Virus record (IMG/VR): IMGVR_UViG_3300031994_000001
Coordinates: 247,799 to 311,798 of that record
From: a virus
Lineage: Duplodnaviria; Heunggongvirae; Uroviricota; Caudoviricetes
Length of the DNA: 64,000 nucleotides
Direction: 5' to 3' (one strand)
Below the pieces are notes generated by a model, which did not search any database, was not told the DNA's origin, and saw only the letters and a program-made list of their open reading frames with translations. A program made the translations under genes and the position numbers. Position 1 is the stretch's first letter; the number at the start of each line of letters is the position of its first letter. Below, one piece after another: positions 576-11,711 of this stretch.

Positions 576-992
576 ATGACGACTAAAGATAAAGACCTTT
601 TAACGAAAGACCTTTGCGGCAGGTTGCCGTATGGCATTAAAGTAGAAGTCTGTATAAAAGACAAAGATATAAAATCTGTGGATAATGTAAAATATGACAC
701 AGTTGGCACTTACATTAGGTTAATAGATGACGAGAAATTTTCAGTCAAACCTTATATCCGCCCTATGTCAAGTATGACCGATGACGAAAGGGACGATATG
801 AGAGAAGAGTTGGAATGGGTTGAATCATTCGGAGAGAGGTTCTATGACAAAACCACAGAGTTCTATGATTGGATGAACGCCCACCACTTCGACTACCGTG
901 GACTTATCGAAAAAGGGTTGGCACTTGAAGCACCCGAAGATATGTATTCAAAAGAAGATATGCCTAAACTTAAAGAATATTATGACGACTGA
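576..992 (+). CDS. Array paralog 2
   Basis: DLCGRLPYG, KPYIRPMSSMT, DWMNAHHFDYRGLIEKGLALEAP. Confidence 0.9.
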   Translation: MTTKDKDLLTKDLCGRLPYGIKVEVCIKDKDIKSVDNVKYDTVGTYIRLIDDEKFSVKPYIRPMSSMTDDERDDMREELEWVESFGERFYDKTTEFYDWMNAHHFDYRGLIEKGLALEAPEDMYSKEDMPKLKEYYDD

Positions 993-1416
993 AGACAGAG
1001 ACCTTTTGATGAAAGACCTTTGCGGTAGGTTGCCGTACAAGGTGAGATGCAAATGCGTGAACGGCTTGGGCGGCGGTAAAACCGAAAAAGGCGTACTGAA
1101 ATATGTCGGCAACTGCTACGGTGTCATCAGCAATTACTACGAAGACGTGCCACTCCATTCGGGATTCGTGAACAACGTGTTCTATCCGATTGAGAATGTC
1201 AAGCCGTATCTCCGACCAATGTGGAGTATGACAAATGAAGAACAAAAAGAATTTGTAGGATTTCATTGTGTAAACTTATGCCCTATTATAATGAATGAAA
1301 TGCTCACATTGGAAAATGAAACCAAGATGTTTGACTGGCTCAACACTCATCATTTTGACTATCGTGGATTGATTAAAAAAGGTCTTGCATTGGTAGCACC
1401 CGAAGGAATGTATTAG
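982..1416 (+). CDS. Array paralog 3 (start reassigned to ATG 982)
   Basis: MTTEDRDLLMKDLCGRLPY...KPYLRP...DWLNTHHFDYRGLI. Confidence 0.9.
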   Translation: MTTEDRDLLMKDLCGRLPYKVRCKCVNGLGGGKTEKGVLKYVGNCYGVISNYYEDVPLHSGFVNNVFYPIENVKPYLRPMWSMTNEEQKEFVGFHCVNLCPIIMNEMLTLENETKMFDWLNTHHFDYRGLIKKGLALVAPEGMY

Positions 1417-1417
1417 T

Positions 1418-1702
1418 ATGAAAGGACAATCGTTACAAAGACAGTTCAATTACTTGAAAGAGAGACTTGATAATAAGGAAGGAACACGTATAATTGTGGA
1501 TGAAAACCCTTATTATGGATTTTATGCCGAGTGTGATTGTCTCTATCATACAGAACGACACGGTGATTGGGAATTGGTTATTGACGAAAAGATAAAAAAC
1601 TGTGACTCAAACTGTAAGGAATGTAAAGAATGTGGTTTGTGGAATAAGAAAGGGTATTATTTTATTCCTTGTTCAAATATTTGGAGAATAAGATTGGATT
1701 GA
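1418..1702 (+). CDS. Cys-rich hypothetical cargo protein
   Basis: 94 aa ORF, AT-rich, CxxxCxxCxxC cluster; stop lies in TGGATTGATT repeat. Confidence 0.7.
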   Translation: MKGQSLQRQFNYLKERLDNKEGTRIIVDENPYYGFYAECDCLYHTERHGDWELVIDEKIKNCDSNCKECKECGLWNKKGYYFIPCSNIWRIRLD

Positions 1703-1755
1703 TTCCGATGGGTCTGGCGTTGGCTGCACCCGAAGGAATGTATCAAATACAATAG
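1696..1755 (+). pseudogene. Orphan 3' fragment of an array paralog (GLIPMGLALAAPEGMYQIQ*)
   Basis: Direct translation of 1696-1755 matches the family C-terminal block but has no N-terminal part. Confidence 0.85.
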
Positions 1756-1758
1756 ATT

Positions 1759-2247
1759 ATGACAACAGAAGAAAAACAATTATTGGTGAAGGACATCTGT
1801 GCAAGGATTCCGTTTGGATTAAAATGCACAACAAAAGCAAACAGTTGGCAGGGCGCATATCAGATAAGGGGTTGTTTGGACGGCAAAATATTCCTTGACT
1901 GCCACGAATACAACGAGGGCGATGACGAATGGCTCGTTCAGAATATCGTCCCATATCTCCGTCCCATACAAAGTATGACCGATGAGGAAATGGAAGACTA
2001 TGCAAGATACAAATTCTCGTCAGACGAAATTTGGGAAATCGTTGATTTCAAACGGACGGGCAAGGGATTCATAAATGTAAACTGCAAGAACAGAAATGAC
2101 GCAAGCGCACAATGGACGTTCCAAGTCAATCAAAAAAGCCCGCTTGAAAACCATAAAGGCATTGATTGGCTCAACGCACGCCACTTCGACTACCGTGGGC
2201 TTATAAAAATGGGATTGGCTAAAAAAGCCGCCGAAGGAATCTATTAA
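1759..2247 (+). CDS. Array paralog 4
   Basis: DICARIPFG, PYLRPIQSMT, DWLNARHFDYRGLI. Confidence 0.9.
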   Translation: MTTEEKQLLVKDICARIPFGLKCTTKANSWQGAYQIRGCLDGKIFLDCHEYNEGDDEWLVQNIVPYLRPIQSMTDEEMEDYARYKFSSDEIWEIVDFKRTGKGFINVNCKNRNDASAQWTFQVNQKSPLENHKGIDWLNARHFDYRGLIKMGLAKKAAEGIY

Positions 2248-2258
2248 ACCGAACAGAT

Positions 2259-2639
2259 ATGACTGAAGAAGAAAAACAACTGCTTTTCACAGACCTATGC
2301 GCAAGACTGCCATACGGTGTGATATTAGACAACGGGGTAAAACTGCGTACAATAGACGCATTGACAAAAGTGATAAGCGGTGACGGCTCGGACAGAAATA
2401 TTGAGTTCGTCAAACCTTACCTGCGCCCAATGTCAAGCGTTACGGATAAGGAACAGTATGAATACGACCACGCAATAGAAAACAATAAATTCACTGGGTT
2501 CCGAGGCAGGATTATTTGGGGTTTGGATTGGCTGAACGCACATCATCTTGACTACCGTGGTTTGATAGAAAAGGGGTTGGCACTTGAAGCACCCGAAGGA
2601 ATGTATAAAACGCCAAACATAAAAAATCAAGAATTATGA
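2259..2639 (+). CDS. Array paralog 5
   Basis: DLCARLPYG, KPYLRPMSS, DWLNAHHLDYRGLIEKGLALEAPEGMY. Confidence 0.9.
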   Translation: MTEEEKQLLFTDLCARLPYGVILDNGVKLRTIDALTKVISGDGSDRNIEFVKPYLRPMSSVTDKEQYEYDHAIENNKFTGFRGRIIWGLDWLNAHHLDYRGLIEKGLALEAPEGMYKTPNIKNQEL

Positions 2640-3127
2640 CAGAGGACGACAAAAAACTTCTATTAAAAGACCTATCAGCGAGATTGCCGTACAATGTGAA
2701 AGTCTTGTGCAGTTACTATGACGACACAGATGACACAGAACCGACAGTAAAAACATTCACTCTCACCGAAATAAACACGGAGAACGGCAATCACCCATAT
2801 TGGATAGGTGGCGAACAGTTGCAGGATAGCGGTTTTTCCAACGGCACTACGTCTTTCGCCGTGAATATAGACGATGACTTGCAATACATCAAGCCGTACC
2901 TGCGACCAATCACAAGCATAACGGGGAACGAGGAGCGGGAAATAAGAAATTTCTTCAGAAAGTGTATTGACGATTTACACGGAAAATCAAGCGAGGAACA
3001 ATTTTTTCTTGGTTTTTGCCAAGACGCGGAATCACTTGACTATCTCAATATGCACCATTTAGATTATCGCGGTCTGATTGGGATGGGGTTGGCAATCGAA
3101 GCCCCCGAAGGAATGTATGAAATCTAA
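2636..3127 (+). CDS. Array paralog 6
   Basis: DLSARLPY, KPYLRP, DYLNMHHLDYRGLI. Confidence 0.9.
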   Translation: MTEDDKKLLLKDLSARLPYNVKVLCSYYDDTDDTEPTVKTFTLTEINTENGNHPYWIGGEQLQDSGFSNGTTSFAVNIDDDLQYIKPYLRPITSITGNEEREIRNFFRKCIDDLHGKSSEEQFFLGFCQDAESLDYLNMHHLDYRGLIGMGLAIEAPEGMYEI

Positions 3128-3131
3128 TGTT

Positions 3132-3335
3132 ATGACAAAGAACGAATTACACAGACTGATGAAGTTGCTTTCCTACAAGGAACAGCACAAGGATATTTTG
3201 AAAAAACTGCACAACGATGCACAGATAATCTACGATGGGTTTGCCACAGAGGGATTGGTTACAATCTATGAAATGTGCAGTGACGAATGCAAAGACAAAT
3301 TGGTTTCCATTCTATTGGAGACAATTCAACAATAA
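3132..3335 (+). CDS. Hypothetical cargo protein
   Basis: ATG 3132 just after paralog 6 stop; fills gap. Confidence 0.6.
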   Translation: MTKNELHRLMKLLSYKEQHKDILKKLHNDAQIIYDGFATEGLVTIYEMCSDECKDKLVSILLETIQQ

Positions 3336-3804: not shown

Positions 3805-4407
3805 ATGACGCAAGAAGATAAAAAACTGTTGTTGACTGACATCTGCGCACGATTGCCATACGGATTGATGTTCGCCCTTTGGAACGATTACCGCAAAGAG
3901 TTCTGTTGGGAAGTGCAAGTTAGCGGATTGGAATACGCGAACGCAAAACCTATTTTCGTATTCGACAAACCATCTTATCGAAAACACGGCATAGAAACAA
4001 TCAAGCCATACCTGCGCCGCATATCGTCTATGATTGACGATGAAAAATCGGAGTACGCTAACTTTTGGAGTTATGACGAATATGACGAAGCCATACTCAC
4101 ACCCGAAGACGCTGTACGCTGCGGCGATTGGCTTGACGCTCATTTCTTCGACTATCGCGGACTGCTCGAAAAAGGATTGGCACTCGAAGCACCGAGCGGA
4201 ATGTATGCTGCCTTGAACAAAGAAACGCATACCCCGATGACCGTTGAGGAAGCAAAGGCGTTCATTCGTCAGCACAATGTGGTGCATCCGAGGTGCAGGC
4301 AATGCAAGGAAAGTTTCTGTGACGGCTGTGCCGAGATTGTTGACAGAGAACTCGTGAACGATGTCATAAGCGGCAAGATAAACGAAATCAACTGTTTTGA
4401 ATTTTAA
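3805..4407 (+). CDS. Array paralog 8 with C-terminal CxxC-x4-CxxC extension
   Basis: Family blocks plus HPRCRQCKESFCDGC tail. Confidence 0.9.
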   Translation: MTQEDKKLLLTDICARLPYGLMFALWNDYRKEFCWEVQVSGLEYANAKPIFVFDKPSYRKHGIETIKPYLRRISSMIDDEKSEYANFWSYDEYDEAILTPEDAVRCGDWLDAHFFDYRGLLEKGLALEAPSGMYAALNKETHTPMTVEEAKAFIRQHNVVHPRCRQCKESFCDGCAEIVDRELVNDVISGKINEINCFEF

Positions 4408-4411
4408 TGGT

Positions 4412-4873
4412 ATGGATAAAGAAAAAGAAAAGATAAAATACGCAGACATCTGTGCGAGGATTCCATACGGGGTGTATGTGTTTGTTGAAACAATCCCGAA
4501 AGACGACTGCGTGTGCAGGCTTTGGAAAACCGACTGCACGAATGCTGATGTGAGGAACAAATGTAAAACATACAATGTATCGCTTGACCATATCAAGCCC
4601 ATATTGAGACCGTTTAAAGATATGTCAACCGATGAGGTTGACAATCTCAACACCATACTGCAAAAATGCAAAATGACAGAACTTTCCGCTTCTAATGGTT
4701 CTGACGTGGCGCAGATTATGCAGAATCTGAACATAAGTGCAATGGCTGAAATATTGGACTACCTAAACTCAATTCACATTGACTACCGTGGTCTTATAAC
4801 AATGGGCATCGCCGTCAAGACCGAAAAATCAATAATAGAAAAATACATTAAAAAGGACACCAATGGCAACTAA
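4412..4873 (+). CDS. Array paralog 9 (subtype B)
   Basis: DICARIPYG, KPILRP, DYLNSIHIDYRGLI. Confidence 0.88.
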   Translation: MDKEKEKIKYADICARIPYGVYVFVETIPKDDCVCRLWKTDCTNADVRNKCKTYNVSLDHIKPILRPFKDMSTDEVDNLNTILQKCKMTELSASNGSDVAQIMQNLNISAMAEILDYLNSIHIDYRGLITMGIAVKTEKSIIEKYIKKDTNGN

Positions 4874-6191: not shown

Positions 6192-6577
6192 CAAACGAAG
6201 ATAAGTCGTTATTGTTTGCAGACCTTTGCGGCAGGTTGCCATACGAAGTTCAATGTGAATACACATCAATCCAAAAAGGGCTGGAACTGTGTAATGTAAT
6301 TGGAACATTGACTTGTGTTGAAAAAATTGTAAATGCCTATAAAGTTGAAGTGGATAGGCATTTGGTTGGTTTTTCCGACTTCAAACCATATCTCCGACCG
6401 TTATCCGATATGTCGGAGTTGGAATCTGTATATTACAACACAGCATTTGTATATAAGAAATTCCACGAAAAAACAGATTGGCTTAATGCCCATCATTTCG
6501 ACTACCGTGGATTGATTGAAAAAGGGTTGGCTCTTGAAGCCCCAAAAGATATGTACGAAAAAATAAAAAAGTTATGA
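6188..6577 (+). CDS. Array paralog 11 (start ATG 6188)
   Basis: DLCGRLPY, KPYLRP, DWLNAHHFDYRGLIEKGLALEAP. Confidence 0.9.
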   Translation: MTNEDKSLLFADLCGRLPYEVQCEYTSIQKGLELCNVIGTLTCVEKIVNAYKVEVDRHLVGFSDFKPYLRPLSDMSELESVYYNTAFVYKKFHEKTDWLNAHHFDYRGLIEKGLALEAPKDMYEKIKKL

Positions 6578-11300: not shown

Positions 11301-11711
11301 ATGACAAAAGAAGAAAGAGATTATCTGTTCGCTGACGTTAGCGCGAGACTGCCTTACTCACCGATTTTTGATTACGGTGACGATGACGGCAAAGTGTTTA
11401 AACTCGGAGTGATAAATTACGAGTTTCTTGCCCATATGTATTTTCAAAATGTCAACAACAAAGACGCTGATATGCTTCGCCCGTATTTGCGTCCTATGTC
11501 AAGTATGACAGAAAAAGAAATGAGCGAATTAAGGCAATGGGGATGTTTGTGTATGACCCCCGATGGCTGTGTAGAAGACATTGGCGTATATGGTGCTATT
11601 CATAGTATTCCCGTTATAGATTGGCTCAACGCCCACCATTTCGACTATCGCGGTTTGATTGAAAAAGGGTTGGCACTTGAAGCCCTCGAAGGAATGTACG
11701 ACTTCAAATAA
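11301..11711 (+). CDS. Array paralog 18
   Basis: DVSARLPY, RPYLRPMSSMT, DWLNAHHFDYRGLIEKGLALEA. Confidence 0.9.
   Translation: MTKEERDYLFADVSARLPYSPIFDYGDDDGKVFKLGVINYEFLAHMYFQNVNNKDADMLRPYLRPMSSMTEKEMSELRQWGCLCMTPDGCVEDIGVYGAIHSIPVIDWLNAHHFDYRGLIEKGLALEALEGMYDFK

Follow-up and report, generated by a model that had tools for sequence, protein, structure and literature searches.

How does a small accessory gene come to stand between two members of a tandem paralog array, followed by the end of a paralog that has no head? The question is raised by a 64,000-nucleotide (nt) stretch of phage DNA (the window, to whose first letter positions refer unless another source is named), which comprises bases 247,799-311,798 of IMGVR_UViG_3300031994_000001, a 413,021-bp IMG/VR record with 43% GC and a CheckV completeness estimate of 100%. 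The phage carries ~35 paralogs of a family of 125-200 amino acids (aa), split between one array on the minus strand (genome 86-99 kb) and another on the plus strand (242-261 kb). Members have in common the blocks C1 (..DLCARLPYG), C2 (KPYLRPMSSMT) and C3 (DWLNAHHFDYRGLIEKGLALEAPEGMY), which are separated by unalignable segments, V1 and V2. Between paralogs 3 and 4 lies the open reading frame (ORF) 1418-1702, termed here the cargo gene, and behind it a headless C3 tail, termed the orphan. The original prediction interpreted this arrangement as a recombination scar, left when a foreign segment with a replacement 3' end and a cargo gene entered via the constant blocks. Comparison with related phages suggests that the region is probably a mosaic generated by recombination at the constant blocks of the tandem paralog family, and it places two breakpoints, one in C2 (~1217-1245) and the other inside the C3 tail (~1714-1726). 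The elements on which the prediction was built (a repeated 10-mer, a 94-aa ORF, a headless tail and an AT-rich stretch) are all present where it had placed them. The argument uses the following features; sampled contigs are designated by L or P numbers.

981-1245, plus strand: head module C1-V1-C2, paired in relatives with other V2 segments
982-1416, plus strand: paralog 3, intact, 144 aa (C1, V1, C2, V2, C3, stop TAG)
1246-1330, plus strand: V2a module, AT-rich, 29% GC
1365-1413, plus strand: upstream C3-tail copy (GLIKKGLALVAPEGMY), left member of a 49-nt direct repeat
1401-1713, plus strand: conserved cassette core (last tail codons, TAG, one base, cargo ORF, first 10-13 nt after the cargo stop)
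1418-1702, plus strand: cargo ORF, 94 aa, invariant Cys at 62, 66, 69, 72 and 85; function unknown
1695-1704, plus strand: junction 10-mer TGGATTGATT, overlapping the cargo stop TGA
1696-1725, plus strand: 5' part of the orphan tail (GLIPMG...), inherited with the cargo
1726-1755, plus strand: 3' part of the orphan tail (..APEGMYQIQ, stop), the resident paralog 3 end as in cargo-free relatives
1759-2247, plus strand: paralog 4, downstream neighbour common to the empty-site alleles
11301-11711, plus strand: paralog matching in V2-C3, but with no cargo behind it, the one that precedes the cargo in L010 and L038

Alleles with and without the cargo gene

Empty-site contigs came to light when the paralog 3 protein was used as a query; paralog 4 was useless for synteny, its IMG/VR orthologues reaching at most 44%. 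L054/L055 and L056/L057 carry the same paralog 3 head joined to a different V2-C3 with a normal C3 ending (..EGMYQIQ, stop), and contain neither cargo nor orphan. Three bases later paralog 4 begins, followed in L054 by paralogs 5 and 6. These are empty alleles of the general kind that the original prediction had anticipated, and the outcome that would have refuted it (a deleted full paralog with no empty-site allele) is not seen in these close relatives. Homology between the window and L054 covers 981-1217 (L054 2327-2563, 94.5% identity) and 1726-3150 (L054 2703-4127, 96.2%), and the flanks enclose 140 nt in L054 versus 509 nt in the window. From C2 (~1217-1245) up to 1726, a position within the orphan tail, homology to the relatives is lost, as expected from the proposed entry via constant blocks. 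Over the printed stretch 1726-1775 the window agrees with L054 and L056 at every base; in both contigs these bases complete an intact paralog, the tail of which departs from the orphan over its 5' two thirds. The head module, found at the above 94.5% in L054/L055, is 90.7% identical in L056/L057 (740-1242, spanning the module), 90% in L011, 85% in L015 and 81% in L013, with homology ending at C2. Module-bearing and module-free alleles coexist among phages with flanks ~91-96% identical. A degenerate-pattern search of IMG/VR for a full gene carrying the exact orphan tail returned 0 hits, so that the predicted empty allele is missing in its strict form; the alleles found end IEKGLALEAPEGMYQIQ.

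A second presence/absence difference between the window and L054 lies one gene upstream, between paralogs 1 and 3, where a 77-aa Cys-rich ORF (L054 2080-2313, also in L011) takes the place of paralog 2 (window 576-992).

The AT-richness noted in the original prediction is real. Positions 1246-1702 have 33.7% GC compared with an array mean of 41.8% (standard deviation 3.1), ranking in the lowest 0.7% of array windows and the lowest 3.6% of genome windows, and the cargo has 33% GC overall and 29.5% at third codon positions. The shift starts at ~1245, where the homology of the gene head to relatives ends. The AT-rich stretch consists of two intrinsically AT-rich modules, V2a and the cargo, that are unlinked in all other sampled phages: the cargo has 29-37% GC in every context, and V2a 28-29% in the window and in L048. 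Without cargo, V2a follows the same head in L053 (95% over window 747-1425, with a normal tail and a different downstream gene) and a different head in L048 (78%). Two degenerate patterns of the V2a core were used, the first giving 0 hits and the second finding L048. The pairing of this head with V2a appears to be old, since it is also seen in the more diverged P0014, where a LIKK..LALVAPE.MY-like tail follows a V2a-like segment.

The cassette in other phages and the origin of its junction

The cargo is preceded by a paralog C3 with the same junction (tail, TAG, one base, ATG) in L009 (=L035), L010 (=L037), L036, L041 (=L042), L026 and L038 (cut short). A headless tail starting at the same base follows it in the first five, and L038 ends too early. 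Counting the window, at least six contexts contain the cassette (C3, stop, cargo, headless tail), and both of its junctions are identical. Blastn homology of L009, L010, L036, L041 and L026 to the window is limited to ~1331-1755. The upstream V2 differs per cassette group, with five different V2 segments in all (V2a and four others), and the genes after the cassette are mutually unrelated (paralog 4 in the window, and proteins of 480, 134, 64, 44 and 196 aa). Cargo identity to L009, L010, L036 and L041 is 97-99%; against the same four loci the flanks reach 76-79% in the C3 head, 56-67% in the upstream tail and 62-75% in the 3' part of the orphan. The C3-derived flanks thus appear to have been exchanged or converted many times since the unit formed, up to the edges of unique sequence. 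In L010, L036 and L041 the cargo has been inherited along with an entire C3 head, which puts their left breakpoint at the V2/C3 border (~1331) and not in the tail. With regard to the predicted donors, other phages do carry the ~1331-1755 unit, but none of those sampled carries the whole of 1230-1702.

The frame 1696-1755 reads GLIPMGLALAAPEGMYQIQ up to a stop codon, a C3 tail without its head, and nhmmer gave no head hit upstream. The same tail start (GLIPMG, GLIPIG or GLIHIG) follows the cargo in L009, L010, L036, L041 and L026 and has no counterpart in cargo-free alleles. Because its 5' part is shared with the cargo contexts and its 3' part with the empty-site alleles, the orphan is a hybrid, in which 1696 to ~1713 always accompanies the cargo and 1726-1755 forms the end that is resident at the paralog 3 locus. 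The identical junction and 5' tail part in at least five other contexts further indicate that the cargo-tail junction arose once and not in the window genome, the unit being older than the event in the window. In this respect the original prediction, which envisaged a fresh capture that made its scar on the spot, has to be modified: just the 3' third of the orphan is the displaced resident tail. Within the window (81%) and within L009 (90%), neither of the two tails flanking the cargo has a closer partner than the other one, a pattern that mutual conversion of flanking repeats would produce. Elsewhere in the genome, the closest match (88%) to the window's upstream tail lies at genome 97522-97572, in the minus-strand array at 86-99 kb.

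Cargo-free copies exist for two of the V2 segments that neighbour the cargo: V2a in L053 and L048, and V2c at window 11301-11711 and in L056. The paralog at 11301-11711 is 86-87% identical to the L010/L038 paralog over V2-C3 (218 nt); V2 is nearly identical, the divergence lies mostly in C3, and no cargo follows. In L026 (540-576) the paralog before the cargo has a one-base difference in an A-run and a tail (..EAKKRNVLV, stop) whose stop overlaps the cargo ATG, reflecting a frameshift or a sequencing error.

The 10-mer TGGATTGATT occurs at 1365-1374 and at 1695-1704, and because these copies are 330 nt apart the orphan tail lies in the frame of paralog 3. The 10-mer heads a direct repeat of 49 nt (1365-1413 versus 1695-1743, 82% identical) in register with C3. 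Its count in the window (5 observed versus 0.27 expected) is in excess because it belongs to the conserved C3 block, and it also occurs within C3 of two further paralogs (6508 and 9336). The idea that the 10-mer is a target-site duplication made by insertion gives way to C3 paralogy: an exact repeat at the tail start is missing from L010, L036 and L041, and L009 repeats a different, longer stretch.

How the junction first formed is suggested by more distant cargo homologues. In L040 a paralog tail, TAG and one base precede a cargo ending TGGATTGA, after which comes an unrelated gene and no orphan. Since the L040 cargo has this ending without a tail, the junction bases appear to be native to the cargo, and they coincide with the RGLI codons of C3. 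The junction probably originated once, in an 8-nt microhomology event between the native cargo end and these codons. In the simplest version, a paralog following the cargo would have lost its head in one event; such an arrangement is seen in L039, where a complete paralog begins two bases after the cargo (84% identical protein), and in L023, where it begins after 40 nt (53%). Alternatively, a tail-plus-cargo piece may have been joined into another C3. Orphan tails can also arise by decay, and a second, independent one is found in L011 5594-5870 (same in L012), where a TGG codon in an orthologue of window paralog 9 (4412-4873) has become the nonsense codon TGA, and an internal deletion has fused V1 to a C3 tail that is out of frame.

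Two neighbourhoods of distant cargo homologues have features of their own. In L039 a decayed C3-tail-like stretch (1087-1199, ..IGFALEAPE, stop), maybe a tail remnant, lies just before the cargo homologue and behind a 71-aa Cys-rich ORF. In L040, whose phage has 33% GC, six overlapping tandem paralogs of 74-92 aa from another family (ends ..IKEYEPV / ..KEYETI) occupy 318-1762, right after the cargo homologue, and look like a different small-gene array.

Cargo homologues in metagenomic phage contigs are 47-99% identical. The ratio of non-synonymous to synonymous substitution rates against diverged homologues (0.15-0.4), together with distant homologues that stand alone with no paralog array nearby (e.g. 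beside an RNA ligase in a 24%-GC contig), indicates that the cargo is a real, independent gene. It has no Pfam or PHROG match; a cargo profile search of the genome_contigs collection found no relative, and two more IMG/VR scans gave just the two known contigs. Its predicted structure (predicted local distance difference test (pLDDT) 79.6) is a helix plus a small beta-barrel, with best matches to Sm/Hfq/WYL-like folds at Z 5-6.4 (top 6.4: designed SH3, Hfq, WYL), too weak for a function. In L010 (6202-6204, same in L037) the cargo has an in-frame TAA at codon 68, and the headless tail behind it is unchanged; the codon is present in two separately fetched records (IMG/VR and the JGI metagenome collection) that are otherwise 96% identical. 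The cargo appears dispensable and pseudogenised in this phage.

The paralog family itself has no Pfam match, and its matches to phrog_10841 are weak (E 1.7e-7 to 1e-3), with most of the profile covered in one of four matches (paralog 4); the function of this PHROG is unknown. An AlphaFold model of paralog 3 (35-sequence alignment, pLDDT 83.5) begins with an N-terminal helix, which is followed by a small beta-barrel up to C2 and by two helices whose end lies in C3. Foldseek against the PDB returned nothing at E < 0.001 for this model, and the best hit of a VIA-wide fold search (Z 5.2, Tudor-like) was below the informative level, so no function was assigned. Both the N-terminal half of paralog 3 (model of 982-1413) and the cargo (model of 1418-1699) are predicted as an N-terminal helix plus a small barrel of five strands, the final strand falling at the C2 position in the former and at the C-terminus in the latter. 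A cargo derived from a diverged paralog head was rejected at the sequence level (hhalign probability 0.05%) despite the like layout of the models. Blastn of 900-2300 against 50,697 GenBank phages gave no match.

Proposed mechanism and rival explanations

All breakpoints of the cassette fall in repeated conserved sequences, namely C2 (1217-1245), the V2/C3 border (~1331) and the interior of the C3 tail (1714-1726). We propose that the headless tail would act as a right-hand homology arm to the C3 tail of any paralog, with C2 or the C3 head as the left arm, and that ordinary (homeologous) phage recombination could then place the cargo behind any paralog or remove it again. The recipient gene would stay intact because the unit brings a full C3 and stop. 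The exchange points are read directly from the alignments; we infer the arm role of the tail and the recombinase involved.

Two further observations concern exchange and fusion in paralog 8 (window 3805-4407). It runs past ..GMY without a stop into a 65-aa Cys-rich extension (..RCRQCKESFCDGC..), a module fused in frame to C3. In L011 (5001-5621) its C-terminal half (93% identical) is joined to a paralog 3 head, with the exchange again at C2.

Several points weigh against recombination at the constant blocks as we describe it. The tails fit no single clean crossover with any sampled donor, and several conversions must be assumed; a single Campbell-type crossover was rejected, as it does not fit the tail identity matrix. 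Apart from the window, no sampled phage combines V2a with the cargo, and the single donor segment 1246-1713 is postulated rather than seen. The sample is small, comprising 2 IMG/VR contigs and a handful of short contigs from metagenomes. In L054 and L056, moreover, V2-C3 duplicates at 91% identity what other members of the array carry (window 6391-6543 and 11496-11689), and the relatives could therefore be the derived ones that lost the cargo. Composition (an AT-rich cargo in a 43%-GC genome) tips the balance between gain in the window and loss in the relatives only slightly towards gain; the crossover points would be the same two constant blocks in either case. Finally, an nhmmer profile of the C3 tail finds ~40 significant tails in the whole 413-kb genome, just one of them truly headless (the orphan at 1696-1755), so an arm function is not general in the array. 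The main array holds several other ORFs without a C1 motif, none with a headless tail behind it, and the locus cannot serve as the snapshot of general cargo acquisition by the array that it was first taken for. A more far-reaching version of the mechanism, in which the headless tail, acting with the full C3 ahead of the cargo, is the working right arm of a recombinase-independent cassette that moves a small gene in frame into and out of any of >30 paralogs, possibly via 330-bp circles, with the constant blocks as a docking system, seems doubtful to us.

The rival that survives best holds that nothing was inserted: a full paralog once stood between cargo and paralog 4, and its head was deleted in situ at the 10-nt microhomology. 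The complete paralogs directly after the cargo in L039 and L023, the cargo-native microhomology bases indicated by L040 and the internal-deletion remnant in L011 all agree with such a history, and the hybrid genes of L054/L056 could fuse a paralog 3 head with the body of the lost gene. However, a junction and 5' tail part found identically in at least five other contexts were not made in this genome. The close relatives, moreover, have empty-site alleles and no extra paralog between paralogs 3 and 4, and the last 30 nt of the orphan are the paralog 3 end itself, with L054/L056 tails that differ in the 5' two thirds. As an account of the window's allele, deletion is therefore unlikely, although we prefer it for the first origin of the cassette.

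Very unlikely, in our estimate, is an active cassette system in which the tail copies serve as recombination sites, so that tail and cargo are cut out in frame as a 330-bp circle and reinserted into any C3 tail. The exact 330-nt repeat spacing, by which excision would restore an intact paralog, would suit such a system, as would the presence of the cassette behind at least five different V2 segments; the PeSL mini-circles of T4-type phages offer a precedent (PMC2839356). Against this, the excision product (a full gene with tail IPMGLALAAPEGMY) was not found in IMG/VR or in the six closest protein relatives that were read, and the tails lack the reciprocal pattern of a single crossover. The left breakpoint in L010, L036 and L041 is at the V2/C3 border instead of in the tail, the unit holds no recombinase, and a 330-bp circle would be unusually small.

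The headless tail might instead be conserved because it is expressed, e.g. through a -1 shift near the cargo end that appends the C3 tail to the cargo protein. Its frame is open for 16 codons upstream, has no indels and stops 1-3 codons after MY in six of six versions, but the upstream openness is trivial with a cargo 97-99% identical across loci, and an open frame would be expected anyway if the tail variants arose by conversion from functional tails. Residues vary (e.g. GLELKAPKDMY, APEWMY), the tail frame has no ATG, inspection of 1648-1702 by eye revealed no canonical slippery heptamer, and the RNA fold of 1640-1775 is unremarkable (z -2.0). With the tail unchanged behind the interrupted L010/L037 cargo as well, we regard expression as highly improbable. 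Two other translational routes were rejected on reading the sequence: a T4 gene-60-type bypass (GGA to GGA) would have no stop after the first GGA and a gap of 330 nt, and stop-codon read-through would enter another frame.

A chance repeat or assembly artefact can be set aside almost entirely: although chance recurrence of a single 10-mer within ~600 nt is no rarity and a C3 repeated >30 times invites mis-assembly, the repeat extends over 49 nt at 82% in C3 register and the same arrangement was assembled independently from at least six samples and sources (IMG/VR, JGI, ENA and a whole-genome shotgun (WGS) record).

Relation to known systems

By analogy, the closest described system is the modular shuffling mediated by PeSL (intergenic promoter plus stem-loop cassettes) in T4-type phages. 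In that system, small non-essential genes are gained, lost or replaced among close large phages via short repeated conserved sequences (Arbiol et al. 2010, PMC2839356; Comeau et al. 2014, PMC4122927). There, as in our phage, the repeats occur many times over in hyperplastic regions and a module lies between two repeat copies; the repeats here, however, are the coding blocks C2 and C3 and not intergenic cassettes. A further difference is that one flank here is a headless gene fragment, and around the unit promoter- and terminator-like sites are about as frequent as expected by chance (5 observed versus 4.0 expected and 2 versus 1.5, respectively, with no terminator-like site at the unit's ends). 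Lambdoid mosaicism by relaxed homologous recombination likewise leaves traces where modules meet (De Paepe et al. 2014, PMC3945230), with an exchanged fragment that is almost the same in the different phages and is bordered by short diverged stretches of homology. That study differs in that it concerns temperate lambdoid phages with Rad52-like recombinases.

The comparison with cassette capture made in the original prediction holds in part. As with integron cassettes, a promoterless small gene stands at a repeated array site and is found in different array positions. In contrast to integrons, no integrase lies in or next to the unit (no Pfam recombinase was found among the nine ORFs between 85 and 5779), and its ends are plain homology to a coding block. 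One RNA fold run gave no attC-type structured site (inverted repeats were not searched), and no core is duplicated at both ends in all copies, the 10-mer being repeated in the window only.

Islands and prophages that target tRNA genes, tmRNA genes or gene ends carry a replacement 3' end and leave the displaced original 3' end orphaned at the far junction. The locus resembles such elements in that the unit supplies a 3' end that keeps its target gene whole, and the end it displaced is left as an orphan. It differs in its 330-nt unit, which holds the 94-aa ORF alone and no integrase, and in suggesting general rather than site-specific recombination. Remnants of microhomology deletion offer a last parallel, as a headless 3' fragment is joined at 8-10 nt common to both partners and L011 provides an independent example in the family; the fragment here, however, recurs in several phages with differing surroundings, and exchange with resident tails has altered its 3' part.

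The finding is a well-resolved instance of known phage mosaicism and not a new mechanism. The locus gives base-level breakpoints for accessory-gene exchange in an uncultivated phage of very large size, within its hyperplastic arrays of paralogs. It indicates that the constant blocks are real crossover points, that V1, V2 and cargo recombine independently, and that alleles differ at 94-96% flank identity. The constant blocks may be kept partly because they promote shuffling, which bears on the purpose of the constant-variable-constant architecture of this family.

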